DNA of 43,505 bases from Chthonomonadaceae bacterium. Lineage in GTDB: Bacteria; Armatimonadota; Chthonomonadetes; Chthonomonadales; Chthonomonadaceae. This document shows positions 1,975-42,845 of this stretch, piece after piece (position 1 is the stretch's first letter; each line of letters begins with the position of its first letter). The position numbers were made by a program, and so were the translations under genes. Under the pieces are notes generated by a model. The model worked only from the letters and a program-made list of their open reading frames with translations, was not told where the DNA came from and ran no database searches. The stretch is from assembly GCA_035650735.1 (NCBI GenBank), contig DASRGZ010000015.1:1-43505 (forward strand). The letters run 5' to 3'.

Positions 1975-2201
1975 CGCTCGGTACCTCCCGATAAATGAAA
2001 TTGAGGATAGGCTCGACCGGGCCGTCTACCCGGCACGCGCGCCTCGCGGGGGGCACGCAGGCGCACAACGAAAACGGGAGGTCGCTGCCAGCAGCGACCT
2101 CCCATATGGCGACTCACGGCGTGAATTGGACGGACAAGGGATTGCCGCTCCTGCCGAACAAGGGAGCGCGCCGCACGCAGCAGCAAATCAGGTATCCCCT
2201 G

Positions 2202-4068: not shown

Positions 4069-4457
4069 GATGGTATCCCCCTGGCCTGATTTCCCATGAT
4101 ACGGCGTGATAGGATGGTGTGAAATAGCCTCCTCTTGCTTCCTGGCAGAGGAAGGAGGCTAGGATTGGGTCCGTGATGGTTTGCACCGACAGTTCACGAA
4201 GCAGACGAAGGGACGGGAAGGAAGGTTCCCACGTTTTCGCCAATTAGCCGTCCAGCGAACTGTCAAATATGGGAACAAAGCCGGCAACAGAGGCGTCAAG
4301 TGCGCGAAGGTAGCGCAAATTGGTTCCGGCGGAGCTGCTGGCGCCGAAACGGGAAGGTGCGCAGGCTCTCGTTGTGGGTGCGCACGGTGGCGGGGCCGTT
4401 CACACCGGAAGGGGAAGACTGTCGGCACGTTGCGGGAAGGCTGCGAGGAGAAGAGAG

Positions 4458-12968: not shown

Positions 12969-13808
12969 TTAACCGCGGGAGGGCTCGGCCATTTTGGCGC
13001 GGGCCTGACGGGAGAGCTCCGCGAGGTGGTAGTCGTTGGCCATGACCTGTTCCAGATGCCGCATCCGCTCTGGCCCAGCGGTGGACATCATGATCTCGCC
13101 ATAGTTGCGCTCGACCCAGAAGCGGGCATGGCCGCTGATATAGTCGCGCAGGTCCTGGAGACGATGTTCCGGGTAGCGCTGGCAGAGGTTGATGGTGAAC
13201 ATCCGCCGCCGCGTTCCTCCGCCGAAGGCCGCGTGCTTGGTGTTGTGATTAAAGCAGACCAGGTCGCCTGGCTGAGTCTCTAAGGCCACCGCAGGAACGT
13301 CCTTGCCGGGGATGCCCCAGAATTGCTGACTCTTGCCGGCCTGCTGCATCAGCCAATCGGCATAGCGGTCGCCGGGCAGATGGCTACCGGGAATGACGCG
13401 CAGGCAGCCGGTATCGCGGGTGAGCGGATCGAGGTAGAAGGCGATCTTGATGTGGCGGATGTCGGTGTGCCAGCCGTCGGAGTGCCAGCCGGTATCCCCG
13501 ACATAGTAGTTGCCGTCGCTGCCCATGTAGTTAAAGTCCTCGCCGAGCAGACCGTAGGCGATGCCGAGGATGCGTGGGTCGTCTAAGAGCGTGCAGAGCC
13601 GCGCGCTCTGATCGATGAAGGGCACAATGCAGGAGCGGGCCTTGCCGTCGTGGGGCCTGCCGTAGTGCCCGCCGCCCCGCGCCGCCCAAACGCCCTCGAA
13701 CTCCGCGATAATCTCCTCGATACGGTCGGCCATCAGGCCGGGGAAGGCCAGGTAGCCGAACGTATCGAAGAAGCTGATCTGCTGCTCGGATAATGGGTTT
13801 ACGTTCAT
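12969..13808 (-). CDS. phytanoyl-CoA dioxygenase (PhyH) family Fe(II)/2-oxoglutarate oxygenase
   Basis: AGGAG RBS before ATG 13808; motifs FFDTFGYL, WHSD, GCLRVIPGSH and PGDLVCFNHNTKH. Confidence 0.9.
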   Translation of the reverse strand: MNVNPLSEQQISFFDTFGYLAFPGLMADRIEEIIAEFEGVWAARGGGHYGRPHDGKARSCIVPFIDQSARLCTLLDDPRILGIAYGLLGEDFNYMGSDGNYYVGDTGWHSDGWHTDIRHIKIAFYLDPLTRDTGCLRVIPGSHLPGDRYADWLMQQAGKSQQFWGIPGKDVPAVALETQPGDLVCFNHNTKHAAFGGGTRRRMFTINLCQRYPEHRLQDLRDYISGHARFWVERNYGEIMMSTAGPERMRHLEQVMANDYHLAELSRQARAKMAEPSRG

Positions 13809-13862
13809 AGCGCAACTCCTACACCCGGATAAGTTCCGACGGTATATCTTCTGTATCAAGGG

Positions 13863-14404
13863 TTAGGCTTGATAGGCCGCTCTCTTTTCCAGCGCCAAGG
13901 AAAGCTGTGCGTTCTGTCCAGGGCCGCGTTTGGTCTGCTGTTTTCCCCTGTCAGGCGTTGCAAAGCCAGGCTTGATAAGCAGTGCCTCATCCATCGCGTT
14001 GCGAAGGTCTTCGCTGGAACCAACATGATAAAAGTGGCTGCACACCCTGATCTCTGTATCCTGCCAGCATCGCTCGATATGCTCATTTCTTCTATGTCGG
14101 TTCTCCAGCCACATAGACAGGGCAAAGCCGCAGGGCAGTTGTTTCGCTGCTATTGAGAGGGCTTGCGCCTCTGCCTCGTCCCAGGCGTTGTAGTAATCGG
14201 TGTGGCGTCCGATATAGGGAGGGTCCAGATAGACGAAATCCTCCTGCTGGGCCTCTGCCAGAACTTCCCCCCAGCGCGCCACCCGAAACTCCCAATCTTT
14301 GCCCTGCATCTGCCGGGCTGCCCAGCCGATCTGATTGACGATTTTGGTGATGTAGGCTTTCGTGAAACGCTGGGGCTTATGTCAAAGGGAACGTTGAATT
14401 CTCC
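13863..14404 (-). pseudogene. C-terminal half of a Dam/M.EcoRV-like N6-adenine methyltransferase
   Basis: GEFNVPF / frameshift / HKPQRFTKAYITKIVNQ...FVYLDPPY; the N-terminal half with FxGxG is missing. Confidence 0.85.
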
Positions 14405-15167
14405 AAATCGAATACCTCTTCGCCCAGCGACGCAAACGGTCCTGTACCATTTATAAGTGCAGAAACCGAAGTTACCGACCCGATGTTCTTTGTGTTGCCG
14501 CTGCCTGGCTGGTCTTTGGCAATGCGATACTTGGGTTGCACAAAGAACTGCAAGTCCCTCACCACAGAGGGCATCTGTTCCAACTCATCGAGTGTATGCG
14601 TCCTGAGTTGATCCACCGGCGCTTCCGCCCGCGAATAGATAACACCCAGCACAAAATGCCCAGAATACTCCGCATAGGGAAAGGTAATGTTCTTGGTCGA
14701 AGTCCGATTCCGAAAATATCCGGTGAAGGCTCCGAGCGTCATGGCATTGACCGTATCTGCGGTAATCCGATACGTGCTTTTCAAATCTACGGCAAACTTG
14801 TAGCCCTCCTCAAAGATAAATGTTAGGTCAGGGTAGTGGTTTTGTTCGCGGGAGAGAACCATTTTAAGATTATGTTGAGCCGGGTAGTGTACCCATAGAG
14901 AGTTGATACTTCGTCGCCGATGACCTTATCAACTCTGTAGAGGGACACTACCTTGAGCCGCAAAGTTGACAAAATGCGGGAACAGCATAATTTCTATAAG
15001 CTTGGAAACGACTTTGGTATCGCCGGAAATCGTGTAGACGTTTTGGAAGATGTCTATAAAACCTTGACCGTCCAATCCCCTGTCGAGGTTGAAAGCAACC
15101 TATCGAACGTCACGGCTTCTTGCTGAAGTAAGAGCAGAAATTCTGAAGCCGCTTCTTTTGAAATCAT
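14405..15167 (-). pseudogene. EcoRV-family type II restriction endonuclease, disrupted
   Basis: DWTVK / frameshift near 15061 / FIDIFQNVYTISGDTKVVSKLIE, then an insertion, then QNHYPDLTF...VDLKSTY...GSGNTKNIGS; truncated after EEVFD. Confidence 0.88.
14883..14952. mobile_element. 70-bp MITE / internally deleted IS with IS1-family-like GGTAGTG ends
   Basis: 26-bp terminal inverted repeats (22/26 match), 18-bp core, flanked by perfect 8-bp direct repeat TTGAGCCG (14875-14882 and 14953-14960). Confidence 0.9.
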
Positions 15168-16695: not shown

Positions 16696-18975
16696 ATGGG
16701 CAGTGATAACTCTGGATCCGCCGAACATACAGATGAGGCGATCCAGCCCGATGCCGAGTTAGCGCATGATCGCCGCCAGGATGGGGAGGAGCGCTTCCAT
16801 CGCGAAGCGGAGAGCAGGGCGCGTGCCGAACTGGAACGACTCAAGCACGCTTACCAGAAGAGCACTGCCGAAGCCCGTCTGCTCTATGAGGCTGGCCGCC
16901 TCCTGGGAAGCACGCTCGACCCGGAAACGATCTTCGAGACCATGCGTAAACTGGTCTCCGGCATCATGCCGGTAGATACGCTTCTTGTTTCTTCATTTGA
17001 TCCACAGACCAACTTGATCACCTGCTCTTATGCCTGGATCGAAGGCAATCGCGCGGACGTAAGCGGTTTTCCCGCTGTGCCCTTATCTCCCGACGGCAGC
17101 GGGATGCAGAGCACGGTCATTCTGACGGGCAAGCCGCTGATGGTCCTGGATGCTTTCGAGCGGGCCATGAACAGCAAGAGCCATTTTCATGTCGATCCCG
17201 ATGGCACGGTACATGACCACCCGGACCCACATAAGCCCCAATCGCACTCGATCTTGATGGTGCCTATCAAACTCGAAGACCAGGTTCTGGGGATTGTTCA
17301 GGTCCAGAGCCTGCAAAAGGGAGCTTATACGGAAGACGACCTGCGCATTTTGGAGGCGATGGTGCTGCAGATGGCTGCCGCCAATCGCAATGCCTTTTTG
17401 TATCAGCAGGTCAGGGAGGAACTGACAGAACGACAGCGGACAGAGCAGGCGCTGCGGGAGAGCGAAACCCAGTACCGCACCCTGGTTGAAACCTCCACTG
17501 ACCTGATCTGGTCTCTCGACGCCGAAGGAAAGGTGCTCTTCGTCAACCAGGCGGCACACCGGATACTCGGCTTTGATCCTGAAGAGATGATTGGACGTCC
17601 GATCACCGACTTTCTGGCGGATGAGCGGGATCGGAAGAATCTGGAAGACTTTCCACGATTTCTCCGCGATAAAACCCAACTGCGTTACGAAATGGCCTTT
17701 CGCTGCAAGAAAGGCACCGCCATCCTGCTCGCGATCAATGGGGTCGTCTTGCGAGATGATCGGGGCAACGTTGTTGGCGCGACCGGGACGGCTGCCGATA
17801 TTACCGAGCACCGTCGTTTGCAAGAGCAGTTGCTGCAGGCGCAGAAGATGGAAAGCATCGGCCGATTGGCTGGCGGAATCGCCCATGACTTCAATAATCT
17901 GATGACCGCGATCCTGGGCTATGCCAGTCTGGCTCAGATGAGCCTGCCATCAGAAGGCGAGTTGAGCGCCGACCTGCAGCGCATTCAGCAGGCGGCCCGG
18001 CGCGCGTCCGAGCTGACCCAGCAATTGCTGGCGTTTGCCCGTAAGCAGATTGCCGAGCCCAAGATCGTAAATCTTAACGATCTCATCCTGGATATTGATA
18101 AGATGCTGCGCCGTCTGATCGGCGCGGATGTCGAGCTCATTATTCTGCCCAAAGCCGACCTCTGGCACGTCCGGATCGATCCCGGCCAGTTCGGGCAAGT
18201 CCTGGTCAATCTGGCGGTGAACGCGCGGGGTGCCATGCCAAACGGCGGCAAGTTAATTATTGAGACAGATAATATTACTTTGGGCAATGCTTATGGATAT
18301 CAAGGTGCCGAAGGAAGGGCCGGGGACTATGTGATGCTGGCCGTTACCGATACTGGGATCGGCATGACCCCCGAGGTCCAGGCCCATCTTTTCGAACCGT
18401 TCTTTACCACCAAGGAGGTCGGCAAGGGAACCGGGCTGGGGCTGGCGACCTGCTATGGCATCGTGCAGCAGAGTGGCGGTCATATCCAGGTCGAAAGCGA
18501 GCCAGGGCGGGGAACTACGTTTCGCATCTACTTGCCGCGCACCGAAGCGCCCGCAAAGTCAGGCGCGCGCGCGGAGGCTCCCAAGACGCTGCCGGGCGGA
18601 ACGGAAACCCTCTTGCTGGTAGAAGATAACCCCATGGTAAGGGAGCTCGGCGTGCAAACGTTGACGGCGTTAGGCTACACCGTCCTGGCGGCTGCCAATG
18701 GGAATGAGGCGCTCCGCCTGGTGGATCAACATGAGGGACAGATCGCTCTATTAATCTCGGATGTCATTATGCCGCAGATGGGAGGTGTGGAACTGGCCCA
18801 GCGTCTTCATGAGAAGCGGCCAGGAATTCCGGTACTGTTCACGTCTGGCTATACAGCGACGACGCTGGCTTCTGGTTATCGTGGGCTCCCACCCGACCAG
18901 CCATTTTTACAGAAACCATTCACACCGACGGTGCTGGCGCAGAAAGTACGCCAGATTCTGGATGCCTCTAAGTGA
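16696..18975 (+). CDS. cytoplasmic hybrid sensor kinase (GAF-PAS-HisKA-HATPase-REC, CckA-like)
   Basis: LAGGIAHDFNN H-box, NLAVNA, DTGIGM, FFTTK, GTGLGL and receiver motif LLISDVIMP. Confidence 0.95.
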   Translation: MGSDNSGSAEHTDEAIQPDAELAHDRRQDGEERFHREAESRARAELERLKHAYQKSTAEARLLYEAGRLLGSTLDPETIFETMRKLVSGIMPVDTLLVSSFDPQTNLITCSYAWIEGNRADVSGFPAVPLSPDGSGMQSTVILTGKPLMVLDAFERAMNSKSHFHVDPDGTVHDHPDPHKPQSHSILMVPIKLEDQVLGIVQVQSLQKGAYTEDDLRILEAMVLQMAAANRNAFLYQQVREELTERQRTEQALRESETQYRTLVETSTDLIWSLDAEGKVLFVNQAAHRILGFDPEEMIGRPITDFLADERDRKNLEDFPRFLRDKTQLRYEMAFRCKKGTAILLAINGVVLRDDRGNVVGATGTAADITEHRRLQEQLLQAQKMESIGRLAGGIAHDFNNLMTAILGYASLAQMSLPSEGELSADLQRIQQAARRASELTQQLLAFARKQIAEPKIVNLNDLILDIDKMLRRLIGADVELIILPKADLWHVRIDPGQFGQVLVNLAVNARGAMPNGGKLIIETDNITLGNAYGYQGAEGRAGDYVMLAVTDTGIGMTPEVQAHLFEPFFTTKEVGKGTGLGLATCYGIVQQSGGHIQVESEPGRGTTFRIYLPRTEAPAKSGARAEAPKTLPGGTETLLLVEDNPMVRELGVQTLTALGYTVLAAANGNEALRLVDQHEGQIALLISDVIMPQMGGVELAQRLHEKRPGIPVLFTSGYTATTLASGYRGLPPDQPFLQKPFTPTVLAQKVRQILDASK

Positions 18976-22574: not shown

Positions 22575-22786
22575 GGGTATAGTCTACCGCAAAGAAGGCC
22601 GTTTAGGGAAGGGGCACGCATCCGAGGGGCTGCCAGCGTCGTAACCCTCTCGGAGAGCGCCCAGCCGTCGCGTGGAAAGTGCTCCCCTTCGGAACTGTTC
22701 TCCCTGAGGAAGCTTTCGAGCTGAGAGTGATCAGGAAAAACCACCGCTTCACGATGTAGGCAGGTTCCCTCGTTCCCTTTAGCGAA

Positions 22787-24202
22787 ATGGCATCCATGAA
22801 CACCCTGCTGCCCTCTACCCTGCATACTATCGAGGCTTTAGACCGGCAACTGCTCAATGATTTCCGGGATAGATTGCGGGTGCAGTCTGTTCTGTCGCGC
22901 CCATTGGTCAGTTTTCAGGCGAACAAGACCCGTGCCGCCTACCGCTGGTATAAGTACAAAGAAGCGTTCTCCGCCTCGCTGGTGGAGTATCTGCTATGCT
23001 CCTACGGAAACGTTTCCGGGCGCATCCTTGACCCCTTCGCGGGCAGCGGAACGGCACTGTTCGCGGCAAGCGCGGCAGGTTTAGAAGCCGACGGTATCGA
23101 GATCCTGCCCATCGGCCAGCAGATTATCCAAACCCGTCTCCTGCTGGAGCGAGAGTTCCACCTGGACGATCTGGCGCGATTGGTGTGCTGGCAGACAACA
23201 CGCCCCTGGAATCACACCGACACGCGCTGTCCTCTGCCGACCCTGCGGATTACCGAGGGCGCGTATCCGCCGGAGACCCAGGACGCCATCGAGCGATTTA
23301 CGGGCGCATGGCGGCAGGAGAATACCAGCGTACAACAGGTGCTGCGTTTTGCCCTCCTCTGCGTTCTGGAGTCGGTCAGCTATACGCGCAAGGATGGGCA
23401 GTATCTGCGCTGGGATAGGCGTTCCGGGCGCAAGCAGGGCAAAAAGCCCTTTGATAAAGGCCCTATTCCCCCGTTTGATGAGGCGGTCTGCGCCAAACTC
23501 GCCGAGATAATCAGCGACCTGCGCTCCGGCAATGAGCCACAGGATCTGTTTGCGGCGGAACCTCCCAAAGCGGGCGCCGTTCGCCTGCTGCCTGGTTCCT
23601 GTCTGGAACTCCTGCCCGGGCTGCCGGACGCCGTTTATGACGCGGTGCTCACCTCTCCGCCCTACTGCAACCGCTATGACTACACACGCACCTACGCCCT
23701 CGAGCTCGCTATGCTGGGTGTCGGGACCCAAGAGATACTCCAGCTGCGTCAGCAGATGCTCTCCTGTACGGTGGAGAACCGCGCCAAAGACCTGTTGCAA
23801 ATGAATCCGCAATGGGCAAGCGCCATTGCTGCCGCCGATAGTCAAGAGCTACTCCAGGCCATTCTGCGCTATCTGGAAAGCGAAAAAGAGCGCGGCGCAT
23901 TGAACAATCAAGGTATCCCGCGCATGGTACGCAGCTACTTCTATGAGATGGCCTGTGTCCTTGCGGAATGCGCGCGGGTTCTCAAACCGGGCTGTCTCTT
24001 GTTCATGATAAATGACAATGTGCGCTACAGCGGCGCAAGTGTCTCCGTTGATCTCATTCTCTCTGCTATGGCTGAGAGATTAGGCTTCATGGTTCAGAAC
24101 ATTCTTGTGCTGCCCAACGGCAAGGGGAACAGCAGTCAACAGATGGGCGCGCATGGACGCGATCCGCTCAGAAAATGCGTCTATGTCTGGCGGAAAACCT
24201 AG
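22787..24202 (+). CDS. N4-cytosine DNA methyltransferase (alpha group, M.AvaI/M.BsoBI-like)
   Basis: DPFAGSGT precedes TSPPY; adjacent to a BsoBI-like endonuclease; ORF intact. Confidence 0.9.
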
Positions 24203-24203
24203 A

Positions 24204-24301
24204 CCTATGCTCAAACCATATCGTCTGCACCTTCTTCAAGGTGTCTCACGCGGGCGAACCCGGCTCGGAGTCCTATGCTCAAACCATATCGTCTGCACCT
24301 T
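24204..24301 (+). repeat. perfect 30-bp direct repeat separated by 38 unique bp, duplicating the endonuclease start
   Basis: CCTATGCTCAAACCATATCGTCTGCACCTT at 24204-24233 and 24272-24301. Confidence 0.95.
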
Positions 24302-25230
24302 GCTTCTAGCGCCGACCTCGTCACAACTTATGAAGAACGACGCGCTGGGTTTATCGCGCTGGCCCTCGAGAAGAATCGACGCGCCACGCCCTTCGTAGAG
24401 CAGGCGCGCGTTCTCAAGTCTTCCGCCGCCCTCGCCGCCTCGCCCGCCGATCTGCTCTCGATGGAGGGCCTACAGCCTGCCTTACTGACGGCGGCTGGTC
24501 TCTCCGATAAAGCCATCGGGCATCTGCGCCCCGAGGACAAAACCGAAGCAATACGCGGCTTGATCGAGCAGTTTTTGGAGCCTGCCGGAACAGACTTCGT
24601 AGACGAGCTGGTGTACCGCTTTTTGTTGACGCGCGGCGATACGCTCGGCGGTTCCATGCGGAACGTCGGCGGAGCCATCGCGCAGCAGAAACTGACGCGG
24701 GCTATTCTGGCTTCCCTTGCGCTGGCCGGGATCGCTTATGAGTGGCTGCACGCTCCCAGCACCACATGGATCGCCATGTGCAAGGATGATGCCGACATCG
24801 AGCGGCACCTGCGCGGCATCTACTGGCGGCAAGGCGGTCAGCCGCGCACGATCTTGTACAACTTTACCGTTCCGCTTATCAAGAATAACATAGACCTGAG
24901 TATGCTGCAATGCACGCCCAACGAACTGACGGCTGGCGGGAGTAAACGCCCGGAACTGTACCTTGCGCTGGGCGAACTCAAGGGCGGCATTGACCCTGCC
25001 GGAGCGGATGAACACTGGAAAACGGCACGAACCGCCCTTTCACGCATTCGCTCGGCGTTTTCCACAGTAGCGGCGCGTCACCACAAACGTTCTTTGTCGG
25101 AGCCGCTATCGAGAAGAAGATGGCAGAGGAAATCTGGAGCGAGTTGGAGCAGGGAATGCTGAACAACGCCGCCAACCTGACGGTTCCCAATCAGGTGTCT
25201 TCTCTCTGCCTCTGGCTGGTCAATTTGTAG
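24275..25230 (+). pseudogene. AvaI/BsoBI-family type II restriction endonuclease, frameshifted near the C-terminus
   Basis: Motifs [10 protein letters not shown] and [21 protein letters not shown]; the family-like tail [19 protein letters not shown]...NAANLT continues in another frame after ~25070 to TAG 25230. Confidence 0.88.
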
Positions 25231-25276
25231 ACGTCAACCTCCACACTTCTCGCCCGATTTCTCTTTTGGAGATCGC

Positions 25277-26131
25277 ATGGTGAACGCAAAACTACGGCCC
25301 TCGACGGTCAAGCTTGGTATCTCTACCTACTCCTACTGGCATTTTCGCGAGCCGAAACTCCCTGTCGAAACCGTCATTGACCGGGCGAGCGCGCTTGGCG
25401 TGGCGGGGGTGGATGTCCTGCACCGGCAAATGGAGAGTGAGGAGCGGTCTTACCTGCAGCGGCTCAAACGCCGCGCCTTCATCCAGGGCATTGACCTGAT
25501 CTGCCTCTCCATTCACCAGAACTTCGTCTCTCCGGATGCCTCGGTTCGGCAAGGGCAGATAGACCATACCCTGCATTGCATCGAGCTGGCCTACCAGATG
25601 GGCATTCCGTGCATCCGGCTCAACTCTGGGCGCTGGGGAACCGTGGCCTCGTTCGACGAGCTAATGGCGCGCGGGGGCGAAGAGCCGCCGCTGCCCGGCT
25701 ATACGGAGGAGGATGCCTTCGCGTGGTGCATCCAGTCTATCGAGGCGTGTGTGCCGAAGGCGGAGGAGTGCGGGGTACTGCTGGCCCTGGAGAACCATTG
25801 GGGCCTGACCCGCACGCCGGAGGGAGTGCTGCGTATCCTGGAGGCCATCGACTCTCCCTGGCTTGGGGCGCTGATGGATACCGGTAACTTCCGGGAAGAC
25901 CCCTACACGAAGCTGGAGAAGATGGCCCCCAGGACGGTCTTTGTGCAGGCCAAAACCTACTACGGCGGCGGCGAATGGTATACCCTGGATATTGACTATG
26001 ACCGGGTGGCGGCGATTCTGGCGGCGGTAGGCTATCGGGGCTATGTTTCGCTGGAATTCGAGGGCAAAGAAGACCCGGAGACTGCCGTGCCCAGGAGCTT
26101 GAAAATGCTTGAACGGGCGTTCCACCTCTGA
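25277..26131 (+). CDS. sugar phosphate isomerase/epimerase family protein (AP endonuclease 2 TIM barrel)
   Basis: Motifs LALENHWG, DTGNF, VQAK and YRGYVSLEFEG. Confidence 0.9.
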   Translation: MVNAKLRPSTVKLGISTYSYWHFREPKLPVETVIDRASALGVAGVDVLHRQMESEERSYLQRLKRRAFIQGIDLICLSIHQNFVSPDASVRQGQIDHTLHCIELAYQMGIPCIRLNSGRWGTVASFDELMARGGEEPPLPGYTEEDAFAWCIQSIEACVPKAEECGVLLALENHWGLTRTPEGVLRILEAIDSPWLGALMDTGNFREDPYTKLEKMAPRTVFVQAKTYYGGGEWYTLDIDYDRVAAILAAVGYRGYVSLEFEGKEDPETAVPRSLKMLERAFHL

Positions 26132-27090: not shown

Positions 27091-27298
27091 CCTTGCCGCG
27101 CATTGAAAATACCCGGCTAGAGGGCGGCTGCGCCGCCAACCGTTCTGCCGGACGGAACAACCGGCCTATCGGCAGGCGGCTGCCTTCGTAGAGCGGGAGG
27201 AACCTGGCTTGGCAGGGCGTCCGCAGGACGCTTGGCCGTAGGCCCTAGAGCCGGGTATTTTCAATGCCCGGCGAGGACCAGGGGTTGAAAGCCCCCGG
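27091..27298. repeat. REPIN/MITE-like palindromic element
   Basis: 35-bp inverted repeats at 27091-27125 and 27242-27276 (31/35), each itself a hairpin, plus a third hairpin CCAGGGGTTGAAAGCCCCCGG at 27278-27298. Confidence 0.75.
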
Positions 27299-31552: not shown

Positions 31553-34500
31553 CTACGCGGCTTTCTGCCAGGACGGCGGTTCCGGAAGAGCGCTGTGGGA
31601 CAGCCAGCGGCTGAGCATCTCGCGCAGGGTGGGCGTATGAATGGGCTTGCTGAGATAGTCATCCATGCCGGCAGCCTGGCAGCGCTCGCGATCTCCGGCC
31701 ATCGCGTGGGCCGTCATCGCCAGGATGGGCACAGGCGGCTTCCCGAGTTCCTGCTCGCGGCTCCGAATGGCCTGCGTCGCCTCAAAACCGTCCATTTCCG
31801 GCATCTGAACATCCATCAAGATCAGGTCATAAGAGGCCGCCTCCAGCGCCTCCAGCGCCTGGCGTCCATTGCTCACCATCGTCACCTGATCCTCGGCAAA
31901 GCCGCACTGTTTGAGCATTTCCAGGGCGACAAGTTGATTGATCCGGTTATCCTCGGCCATCAGGAGGCGCGGGGCACGCGCGCCCACGACTGGCGGTGAT
32001 ACGGCCTGCCGGCCCTCCTGACCCGGCCGCGTTGTGCTGCCCACGTCTGCCGGACCGGCCCCATGGAGCGCCTGGAGCAAGCCCTGGAACAGCTCGCCGG
32101 CGCGGATCGGCTTATTCAGGCAGGTAGCAAAGGCGCTGTCCGGCGATTCGGCGCAGGCCCCCGAAGCGCTTAACGGCCTCAAAAGGATCACGGGCGTTTC
32201 CGTCAGCAGGCGCGACTCTTGCAGCCGCAGCGCGATCTCGATGCCGGCTCCATCCGGCAGTTGCCAATCCACCAGCGCCAGCGAACAGCGCTGCCCTTCG
32301 GCGGCCATGCGCTGCAGCGTCTCCCATGCCTGCGCCCCACTGGCGGCCTCAAAGGGAAGACATCCCCAGGCGGCAAGCTGCTCCCGCAGCAGCCGACGGA
32401 CGGTAGGATTATCGTCGGCGATAAGCACGCGCTGCCCGGCCAGTTGATGCGAAGGAAGCAGGATGTCCTGAGTGGCTTGCGCCTGTTTCTCCAGCGTCAG
32501 CTCGGCCCAGAACGTGCTGCCCTGGCCGACGGCGCTGGTCAGCCCGATCTCGCCGTCCATCAGGCGCATCAACTGGCGGCAGATGGCCAGGCCCAGGCCC
32601 GTGCCGCCATAGCGGCGCGTTGTGGAGCCATCGGCCTGGGTGAAACTCTCAAAGATGGCCTCCTGCCGGTCCGGGGCAATGCCGATGCCGGTGTCGCGCA
32701 CGGATAACCGCCAGCGCGCATGGGTCTGATCCTCCCACAGCAGTTCCGCTCCCAGCACCACCTCGCCGCCAGGCTCGGTAAACTTGATCGCGTTGCCCAG
32801 CAAATTGATCAGCACCTGCCGCAGCCGCACCGGATCTCCCAGCACACGCTCAGCCGGGTCGCCGGAGAGGCGCGCTTGCGGGGGTGGGGCGCAGCAGAAC
32901 TCCAGGCATTTCTCGTGCGCCTGGGGAGCCAGGAGCAGAGCGACCTCTTCCAGCAGATCCCGCAGGGAGAATTCCACCTGCTCGATAGTGAGCTTACCGG
33001 CCTCGATCTTGCTGAGGTCCAGGACATCGTTGATGATGGTCAGCAGGGCCTCGGCGCTCTGCTGAAGGGTGCGGGCATACATCTGCTGGGTGGCGGTGAG
33101 CGGCGTGCTCAACAGAAGCTCCGTCATGCCGAGGACGCCGTTCATCGGCGTGCGGATCTCGTGGCTCATATTGGCCAGGAACTCCGCTTTCAGACGCGCC
33201 GCCGCCAGCGCGGCCTCGTGGGCTTCGGCCAGCTCCGTATTGCGCCGTTCCAGCTCCTGGGCGGTTCGGGCTAGCGCCTCTTCGGCACGCTTGCGGGCGG
33301 TGATATCCACATGGACACTGATAGCGCCGAGGATCGTCCCATCCGGGCCGCGCAGCGGAAAGGTGCTTACCAGCACCCGGCAGGCCGTCCCGTCGGCCCG
33401 CCGGGTGGTCTGCTCCAGGCCCTCCAGGGCTTCCCCGGCCAGCACACGCGCGATCCGTTCCCGGCCCTGCTGCCAGCCCCCCAGGCGCCAGATCGTCTCC
33501 GGCAGGGTCTTGTGCAAAATCTGGGCGGCACTCAGGCCATAGAGCGCTTCAAAAGCCCGGTTCCACTCCTGAATGCGTCCCTGGGCATCCAGGGTAAAAC
33601 AGGCGACCGGCAGGCCCTCAAACAGAGCGGCAAAGCGCTGGCAGGCCGCCTCCATACGCTCATTGGCCAGGGCCAGCTCCTGGGCAGAGTCTTCGAGCGC
33701 CGTATTAAGCATTTCCTGCGCCCGCGCATACTCCTGCACGCTGCGGCTGGTCGCCTCCAATCGGTTGTAGGCGCCGCGCAGCGACTGATAGAGATGGCGG
33801 TTCTCCAGGAGCGCCATCACTTGTCTCAGCAGCACAAGGCCAATCAGCAGCGCGCTGCCGACATAGAGGCCCGGCTCCAACGGATTATCGTTGGGGGCGT
33901 AGCGAGTATAGAGCAGTAGCCCGCCGACCGCCGGCGCCAGCGCATAGGGCAGAAGCGAGCGCCACAGCGCCGGTAGGCGCTCGGGGCCGCCTTGCGTTTC
34001 TGCAGCCGCAGGGACAGAGGCAGCAGCGCCGGAGTCGCTTTCCGCCGCCACGGCGCGCAGGCGCACCTCGCCGGCAGCCAGCCCGATCAGCATATACCCG
34101 AACGACCAGCCCACATCCATCCAGGTGCCGGTCGCGTAGGTGTTATGCAGCGTCTGATAGCCGAAGACGACATCCACCAGCACGATGCTTACCAGGCCCA
34201 TAGAGAGCGTGCAGAGAACGCGCCGGGAGGCCACCTCCTCCGCATGTGTCAACAGGACAAGCAGGCAAAACAACAGGATCAGGTCGCCGATGGGATAGCC
34301 GGCCCCCAGAATTTTGCCGAGCAGCGTCTCGGAGCCCTGCAGGATGGTCGGCCCCAGCAGGAAGTACCAGCTAAACGTGACCAGGGCGGTCATGGTCATG
34401 AGGCTGTCGAGCACCACACGACCGCGCGCCGCCAGCGGCAGGGCACGCCGGGGCAGCAACAGGATGCCGATCAGCAGCAGCGGATAAGCGCTCAGATATC

Positions 34501-41043: not shown

Positions 41044-42845
41044 GGGTCAGCGCCAACTTCGGTGAAGGCCGCCCGTCTGCTATAGGGTCAGACCGGGTTC
41101 AGTACGCGCCTCCGCAGCAAGTCAAAGTTGGCTCTGCCGTACCCGCGCCGCTTCACGAATTTGAGCCGGTTCACGCTTCCTTCCACTGGCCCATTACTCC
41201 AATGCAGCGATAGTCCCGCTTCGACGGCGGCCTGGTCGCGCTGTAAACTGGCGGCATAACCACGCATCGGGGCCACCTCACAGGCAAACGCCTCGGTCAG
41301 CCAAGCGGTCAAGTTTTGTTTCTGCGGAGTTCGCGGTGTTTGGCGCACGATCTGCAGAAACCGCTGGCTCAGTTGGGCGGCGATATGGAACGGCTCACAG
41401 AGGCGGGCGAGTTGTTCCAACACGGCTATCTGACGGGAGCTGCGCTCACTTTCCCGCCGTAAGAGCCACTGGACGACTTGGGACGGCGTTACTAGCGGGG
41501 CAGACGGCGGCAGGATGTCTGCTGATCCGCGCAGCGGCTTGACCCAGTCTTTGAGCGTGGTATAGCAACCCTGGTACCCTTGGGCGCGGATCTCGGAGAG
41601 AAGCTCTACGACATTGTGGCAGCCCTCTTCCCACCGGCGGCGCAGATACGCTTCATAGGCCTCGAGCTTACGAGGCCGCTTCTGGGTCGGTGTGCGTTGC
41701 TTGCGCTCGGGAAACAGGTCGGCACAGAGGAACTTGCGGATGGTCTTCCGATCCAGGTGCAGGCGGCGGTGGATATCGCTCTGGCTCAGCCCCTCGCGCC
41801 AGAGTTGGCGGACCGCTTCGTAGCGATCCAGGCGCTCCTGGCGGTGAGATTGTTTCAGGCGTTCGGCGTAGAGGACTCGCGCTGGAACGGTACGGACGGG
41901 CTTTCCCTCTGGGGTTTGTGTGTCCAGCCCTGCGCTCGTTGGAGCGGCAGACTGGGCTGCGAGCTGCTGTGCTGCCTGCCGTAGCAGCAGGCGCTTATCG
42001 TCCAAGAAGCGTTCGAGCGCCTGTCCCAGGTTTCTGACCAGATGCCAGCGGTCTGCCACCTGCACGGCCTCAGGCGCCCCCTGTCGGACGGCGTCCGCAT
42101 AGCACTCGGCACGATCTCGGGTGACGATCTGGACACCGGGGTGAGACTGCAGCCACTGAGCAACCGTTTCGGTATCGCGATCTGGCAGCAGGTCTACGAC
42201 GCAGTGGCGCTCGTGGTCATAGAGCAGAGTGCCATATCGGTGTCCCCGCCGAAACGCCCAGTCGTCTATGCCCAGCACGCGCGGGGTGGGAAACGCGGGA
42301 AGCGGGGCCGCACGTTCCAGACGCAGGAGTGTCGTGGCGCTGGTGTCCAGAGCCAGGTGCTAGGCCAGGCGCACACCGGGTCGGCTTCCGAGCGCTTGGG
42401 CGAGTGCCGTTTGCGCCTGTCGCAGACGTTCTGTTCTCTGGGCATAGGGGCGGGCCAACTCTGGCAGACGCTCGGCAAAGATACGGCGGGGGCAGCGGGA
42501 GTTGGCGCAAAAGAAACGGCGCACGCGGACCCGCAGGCACACCGCCTGACCATTCTGAGGCAAGTCGGCCAGCGTCCGCCAGTACTGGCTGTGAACCCGG
42601 TGGGACAGACGGTTGCAAACGGGGCAGCGTTGGCGTGACGTGGCGGATTTGACGCACATCACGGCGGGATCGTGTTCGGCTGCCGGGAGCCGCCTCAGTC
42701 CGGGAGGCAGCACAAAAGCAGAGGGCATGGGGACACCTCACAGGGGAGATTTCACCATGCCCCCTACGCCAATGCGGAGGAAAATTCCCCTCCCAGTCTG
42801 ACCCTATAGCAGACGGGCGGCCTTCACCGAAGTTGGCGCTGACCC
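41044..42845 (-). mobile_element. ISL3-family insertion sequence (~1.8 kb)
   Basis: Perfect 50-bp terminal inverted repeats GGGTCAGCGCCAACTTCGGTGAAGG... (41044-41093 and 42796-42845) enclosing an ISL3 transposase; no target duplication. Confidence 0.92.
41088..42728 (-). pseudogene. ISL3 transposase with a single in-frame TAG
   Basis: Zinc finger CPVC...RFFCANSRC; motifs LGIDDWAFRRG, DRWHL and SNGPVEGSVNRLK; TAG at 42360-42362 splits two in-frame ORFs. Confidence 0.92.

Follow-up and report, generated by a model that had tools for sequence, protein, structure and literature searches.

A spacer-sized insert between duplicated 30-nt targets at the start of a restriction endonuclease gene in a Chthonomonadaceae bacterium, and its putative origin by off-target CRISPR integration

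The restriction-modification locus and its repeat unit

The window, i.e. the whole stretch of 43,505 nucleotides that was analysed, contains a restriction-modification locus in which a methylase gene is followed directly by an endonuclease gene, and the start of the latter lies within a repeat-insert-repeat unit. The features of the locus are as follows.

22787..24202, forward strand: DNA methyltransferase gene (N6_N4_Mtase), an open frame of 471 aa identified by family match, with an orthologue in the relative G001
24204..24233, forward strand: target-site duplication, copy 1 (30 nt), with the methylase-adjacent ATG at 24207; single copy in G001
24207..24398, forward strand: out-of-frame ORF of 63 codons made by the insertion, overrunning the second ATG
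24234..24271, forward strand: insert of 38 nt, a putative spacer, with GGAG (24267-24270) at its end, before the second ATG
24272..24301, forward strand: target-site duplication, copy 2, with the ATG (24275) of the endonuclease frame
24275..25230, forward strand: BsoBI-family restriction endonuclease gene, broken; the ORF ends at 25162, with the native tail running on in a different frame up to 25230

The two 30-mers are identical, and the exact match extends 0 bases to either side, so that the original prediction of an exact 30/38/30 unit is borne out. The two ATGs are offset by 68 nt, which puts the first of them out of frame as was claimed, and the GGAG said to be new before the second ATG does lie 4 nt upstream of it. 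The assembly has no third copy of the 30-mer, for which the closest other match has 8 mismatches, and the insert occurs in it once, its closest other match having 13 mismatches. The unit is covered by contigs of all four sequencing runs examined (three studies, 2017 and 2024), with 0 differing letters and 0 gaps; three run contigs hold the 2.7-kb stretch around it in one piece, the fourth run covers 22700-25343, and no joint bypassing the unit is listed in the run contigs. This comparison was made with assembled contigs, not raw reads, three runs with a word share of 7-8% were left out of it, and all four runs may be the source of this assembly, so that they weigh against a one-off misassembly and do not count as independent samples. 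The nine runs that a DNA-kind search listed as holding this sequence include no RNA run. That possible common source, and an assembly in 224 contigs, are what could speak for an assembly artefact, but the agreement among the runs, a further metagenome contig with the identical unit and the uniqueness of the insert make the chance of one practically negligible.

Forty relatives were searched with the region and six matched. In G001, which belongs to the same genus, the target is single-copy, the gap of 4 nt between methylase stop and ATG is the same and the endonuclease is intact, while in the alignments to G005 and G004 about 68-70 nt are missing at the position of the unit. The unit is an insertion, and three relatives bear the single-copy allele. 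The empty allele that the original prediction had proposed to look for is thus present, and the large integrated element that it had named as evidence to the contrary is found at the orthologous site in none of the three. What we see is a unique insert in a duplicated, pre-existing target, which is the structure of a neo-CRISPR unit.

The endonuclease matches BsoBI (PDB 1DC1, PF09194) with an E-value of 2e-93 over residues 3-264, and the order of methylase and endonuclease is the same as in the BsoBI system, but here the gene start is disrupted by the unit and the endonuclease frame is not intact. A 2-nt frameshift relative to the orthologue is found at about 25066-25067, also in the run contigs, and because of it the ORF lacks an equivalent of the C-terminal 53 or so residues of BsoBI. 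The endonuclease gene is broken independently of the unit, by this separate frameshift. The claim that the insertion uncouples the endonuclease from its methylase holds for the reading frame only, and the gene has this second lesion as well. Translation of the endonuclease is predicted to be lower, as the methylase-adjacent ATG opens a 63-codon frame across the real start, which is itself preceded by only a GGAG at 4 nt. A predicted hairpin over the GGAG and the second ATG was not significant (z -0.86), and a search for a sigma-70-type promoter found none.

The methylase has 75% amino acid identity to its G001 orthologue and a dN/dS of about 0.12, and the corresponding dN/dS of the endonuclease is about 0.11, so relaxed selection is not seen. 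This suggests that the damage to the endonuclease is recent, and does not give the order of the two lesions. The recognition site of BsoBI-type enzymes we take to be CYCGRG, and the four words that it covers rank 2, 8, 19 and 20 of 4096 hexamers for avoidance in the genome. From this avoidance and the low dN/dS it is likely that a BsoBI-type restriction system was functional until recently. The insertion may have been either the first, selected step in disarming it or a neutral hit in an already dead gene.

Some other features of the window and of the genome were recorded as well. A second decayed restriction-modification locus lies at about 13700-15000 on the minus strand, with both of its genes in pieces:

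13866-14309, minus strand: D12 methylase fragment
14380-14862, minus strand: EcoRV-like endonuclease fragment

There is an intergenic inverted repeat of 35 nt at 27091-27276, with 89% complementarity and arms 116 nt apart, and a gene for an ISL3-family transposase at 41088-42278, near the contig end. Dozens of near-identical copies of a 107-nt element, together with several other short dispersed repeats, are spread across many contigs.

Units of the same kind elsewhere in the genome

The 6.5-Mb assembly, without the CRISPR array, was scanned at periods 30-300 for exact direct repeats with sharp ends and a length of at least 22 nt. This gave 141 repeats, of which 69 have periods of 64-70, 25 have periods of 71-75 and 8 have a period of 61. 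When two mismatches were allowed and multi-copy targets dropped, 110 units were found at periods 58-80 (23 periods), compared to 7 at 68 control periods. The repeats of these sibling units differ from one another and each is derived from the host, and the duplications are still exact in 71 of the 110 units, from which it follows that many are recent. Three geometry classes can be recognised: 69 units are type I-B-like (about 30/36-38), 29 have duplications of at least 34 nt and 8 have a period of 61-62, with 4 left unclassed. Exact ectopic duplications of 29, 30, 31 and 32 nt number 9, 23, 11 and 6, a spread that fits a cut of 30 nt with chance extension and not one of 29 nt. A crude custom gene caller places 16 of the 77 classed units within coding sequence, compared to 76% of random sites, which fits either a purging of harmful insertions or an intergenic bias.

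A direct repeat would also result from slippage during replication or from an old tandem duplication of 68 nt with a diverged middle, and a few extra edge matches are seen here. However, 30 nt are perfect while the other 38 are unrelated to any local or genomic sequence, the inserts of siblings are exact copies of distant loci, and a sharp peak of periods is not expected from slippage; we find such an origin extremely unlikely. The original prediction carried the caveat that weak homology reaches past the perfect core, which would also fit the scar of an integrative element that restores the gene start. Read in this way, the unit would be attL - 38 nt - attR, left behind after the inner part of the element was lost. 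The homology does exist on both sides (6/7 with a gap), the first seven bases of the insert equal the continuation of the gene in G001 after a 1-nt gap, and the GGAG is placed ahead of the second ATG. Such an extension is however present in 1 of 61 units, namely this one, where 1.0 is expected by chance, an integrase family was matched in none of the 35 ORFs of the window that were scanned, and the orthologous sites are, as said, free of any element. Independent scars would moreover not converge on a 30/36-38 geometry and an in-register motif. The caveat finds no footing in these results, and we regard the remnant as very unlikely.

The relatives were sampled with 0.2-0.4 Mb from each of three genomes, and these samples held fewer units. 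G012 gave seven rows in 400 kb, five of them within arrays, one a palindromic repeat and one a true candidate, where 6.7 would be expected at the density of the present genome; G001 had 2 units in 345 kb (5.8 expected), one of which resembles a real CRISPR repeat, and G008 had 0 in 198 kb (3.3 expected). In the near-complete relative G012 a 31/36/31 unit (L029, 16694) shifts the frame of a gene end, which we name UvrA-like from its peptide.

Two further observations concern single sites in the present genome (G000). A unit on contig C224 (43547-43709) has three copies and two inserts, with periods of 68 and 66, and is a candidate nascent array formed by repeated integration at one off-target site. 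Short units with a period of 61 are found at C109 6231-6381, C1 10060 and C19 53152, and one of their spacers is an exact match to the genome's own contig C91. We take these to be type I-E-like repeats; a type I-E cas1 for them is absent from the assembly, as is a cognate cas1 for the period classes 61-62 and 69-78.

The host CRISPR-Cas system and the sequence of the target

On contig C93, cas6, cas7, cas5, cas3, cas4, a type III-A module, cas1b and cas2 are found beside an array of 80 repeats, and 2 of the 14 ORFs scanned there had no family match. Judged from these family matches, the host has a complete type I-B system including the adaptation module cas1b, cas2 and cas4, so that an absence of cas1 and cas2, which the original prediction would have counted against itself, does not apply. 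The cas1b is the sole cas1 found in the assembly. Its product (L001 1363-2541) has 392 aa, and an acidic insert of about 70 residues splits its Pfam match at position 129; the split is also seen in several relatives.

The spacers of the array measure 36, 37 and 38 nt in 34, 24 and 14 of 79 cases, and the 38 nt of the insert are thus within the range of the host. This part of the proposed comparison of geometries agrees. As for the other, the array repeat (G000:C93 2502-7721) is 29 nt and the duplication 30, and a period of 68, which is common among the scars, is found in 1 of 79 array steps. The repeat is scored as 29 nt because the base before it varies. The type I-B arrays of G012 and G008 have repeats of 30 nt. 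If the final base of the leader is added to the host repeat, a 30-mer of the same form results. Either the present enzyme is shifted by one base at its leader junction, or an earlier system with a 30-nt repeat wrote the scars.

The mismatches in repeat length and period mean that the present cas1b may not be the author of the scars, or that it measures differently away from the leader. If integration by Cas1-Cas2 is accepted, it is possible, although we lean against it, that another type I-B integrase was at work, one that uses a repeat of 30 nt and that either preceded the present one or was missed by the assembly. Such an integrase would agree with the 30-nt repeats of the two relatives, with ectopic duplications that peak at 30 and have periods of 66-68 where the array has 29 and 65-67, and with two further geometry classes that have no cas1 in the assembly. 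On the other hand, the first array repeat and the base that precedes it together make up a 30-mer like those of the relatives, some scars share words of 16-17 nt with spacers of the present array, and the large share of duplications still exact speaks for many recent events.

In the type I-B system of Haloarcula hispanica the duplication is reported to need repeat motifs at positions 11-15 and 18-22, the first of them some 10 bp into the duplication, which thereby comes to 30 bp (PMC4872114). An unsupervised motif search ranked the true leader-end target only modestly (top 1.9%), and for this reason we used the test of positions defined in the literature instead. In the 30-nt register, the present target has the first mid-repeat motif of the host in full:

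24214..24218, forward strand: AACCA at target positions 11-15, matching the host motif at 5/5

Of the second motif, at positions 18-22, it has 1/5, so its in-register resemblance to the sites that the integrase recognises is in the first motif. The 28 units with a 30-nt duplication match at 2.64/5 on average at positions 11-15 (null 1.40 +/- 0.18, maximum 1.93 in 1000 draws) and at 2.32/5 at positions 18-22 (null 1.52 +/- 0.19), the latter also above all 1000 draws. A four-base version of the signal reaches 2.36 in register, and a shift of the register by 1-3 nt lowers it to 0.7-1.2.

The first half of the target matches the leader-end repeat at 11/15, as do 2.3e-4 of random sites, and the repeat of G012 at 12/15 (8e-5 of random sites), both by a test that was picked after the match had been seen. 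This site is the best leader-half match among 25 exact 30-nt units. Its identity to the repeat over the whole length is unremarkable, with 21% of random sites as good, but for 54 units taken together the best identity averages 11.1 of 29 compared to 9.2-9.5 in three nulls. The last 15 nt of the target match the host repeat at 1/15, which means that the half needed for the 3' handle of a functional array is lacking, and no fold of the unit's repeat was found (z -0.18). With a target that is without the 3' half of the repeat, the unit is predicted to yield no crRNA, and self-derived inserts could for this reason persist at such sites but not in the array.

A capture of DNA of similar dimensions by a recombinase or by repair of staggered breaks, with no part played by CRISPR, deserves mention here, as the link to CRISPR is drawn from sequence, the genome is rich in short dispersed repeats, and two of the geometry classes are without a cas1. 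This is highly improbable, considering that the targets match the CRISPR mid-repeat motifs in register, that inserts have PAM-like flanks at their sources, and that the geometry classes fit CRISPR types, including the period-61 class with what we presume to be type I-E-like repeats.

In a type III-A system, off-target integration is reported to be held down by HU (PMC13769266). HU/IHF (PF00216) was not found in this genome, and of the 41 genomes of the order that were searched (this one and the 40 relatives) a single one gave a match, so its absence is at most permissive and does not single out this genome.

Inserts, interpretation and known systems

The search for a source of the 38-nt insert, which the original prediction had called for, came back empty. 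No source was found in the genome itself, the exact 38-mer had no match in viral contigs, its 24-nt core had none in genome contigs, and in metagenome contigs only the same locus matched. Matches to phage and plasmid sequences had E-values of 0.1 or worse and were taken as chance, as were an 18-nt match in a run contig and a 13-mer shared with a repeated contig-end element. As no source was found, this insert has no PAM of its own to show.

The siblings are more informative, as 11 of the 110 inserts have a near-full second copy in the genome. Flanks were tested on seven sources, with two multi-copy repeats and two sources of period 61-62 excluded, and CYG (CCG or CTG) stands directly 5' of five of the seven single-copy self sources (P 2e-4, for a motif chosen post hoc); in the remaining two it is one base off. 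Self matches comparable to those of the siblings are absent among the 79 array spacers. A 16-mer in common with array spacers occurs in 2 of 110 inserts where 0.02 is expected, which suggests that inserts and array spacers were drawn from a common pool of invaders.

Four of ten single-copy in-genome insert sources fall in the window, which is 0.67% of the genome, and the chance of four of ten in any one contig is 2e-4. They are:

2024..2055, forward strand: source of the insert of unit C135:1248 (period 61)
4215..4251, strand not given: source of the insert of unit C57:1424
17136..17172, forward strand: source of the insert of unit C31:3766
32865..32903, forward strand: source of the insert of unit C135:1594, with CCG directly 5'

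Their clustering makes the window a putative hot spot of spacer acquisition. What was looked at as a cause of the hot spot gave no explanation: array spacers have no match in the window that could serve for priming (8 mismatches in 32 at best), a dif-like motif is absent from it, the GC skew is flat, and the position relative to dnaA is not conserved in four near-complete relatives.

Taken together, the unit is very probably an off-target integration of a spacer by Cas1-Cas2, putatively by a type I-B integrase. The original prediction of an off-target spacer acquisition is in this respect well sustained by the empty allele, the type I-B adaptation module, the match of the target to the leader half of the repeat and about 100 sibling units. 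The course of events could have been that a type I-B Cas1b-Cas2 carrying a 38-nt prespacer treated the start of the restriction gene as if it were a CRISPR repeat, docked on the AACCA 10 nt inside the target and attacked the two strands 30 nt apart. Gap filling would then have duplicated the 30-nt target, and the allele, being harmless or helpful, would have become fixed.

A wider reading, in which our confidence stops somewhat short of even, is that CRISPR adaptation acts here as a standing, genome-wide insertional mutagen. The about 100 fixed scars would then be the work of up to three types of integrase, in a lineage where HU/IHF is, save for one genome, not found, and they would make up a natural in vivo map of the target preference of Cas1b, of the PAM and of chromosomal hot spots of acquisition, the window being one. 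At this site the slip would have helped to disarm a restriction endonuclease, one defence system switching off another. If this is true, the integrase acts in nature as a mutator whose past events can be counted from their scars, and this record makes it possible to test how fidelity is guarded in lineages without HU/IHF, how new arrays start and in what way self-derived spacers are stored harmlessly. The present site is an unusually full case: the orthologous allele is empty, no other exact 30-nt unit matches the leader half as well, and the place that was struck is a restriction gene. A literature search, with most subscription papers outside its reach, found no natural genome with scars on this scale.

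Non-canonical integration of spacers is described from the type I-E system of E. coli, where it gave neo-CRISPR loci (Nivala, Shipman, Church 2018; bioRxiv 10.1101/148544; cited in PMC6698737). According to the preprint, these needed artificial up-regulation, the evidence from two other species was only circumstantial, and the natural occurrence of off-target integration was called unclear. Our unit is like the E. coli loci in having a spacer-sized insert flanked by copies of a repeat-like host target, duplicated over about the length of a repeat, and unlike them in that about 100 scars, mostly of type I-B geometry and with two further classes, are seen in the assembled consensus of a wild genome. 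With the Haloarcula hispanica type I-B system (PMC4872114) it has in common that the scars are enriched for equivalents of the host motifs at exactly positions 11-15 and 18-22; that work was done with a mutated array repeat, whereas the sites here are natural and off-target, and this target has the first motif only. Cas1-Cas2 of Pyrococcus furiosus is reported to integrate off-target into plasmids in vitro (PMC6698737). There, much as here, integrations come in pairs, spaced by about 30 bp, at sites outside CRISPR that share features of the repeat, but they took place in vitro and were not inherited.
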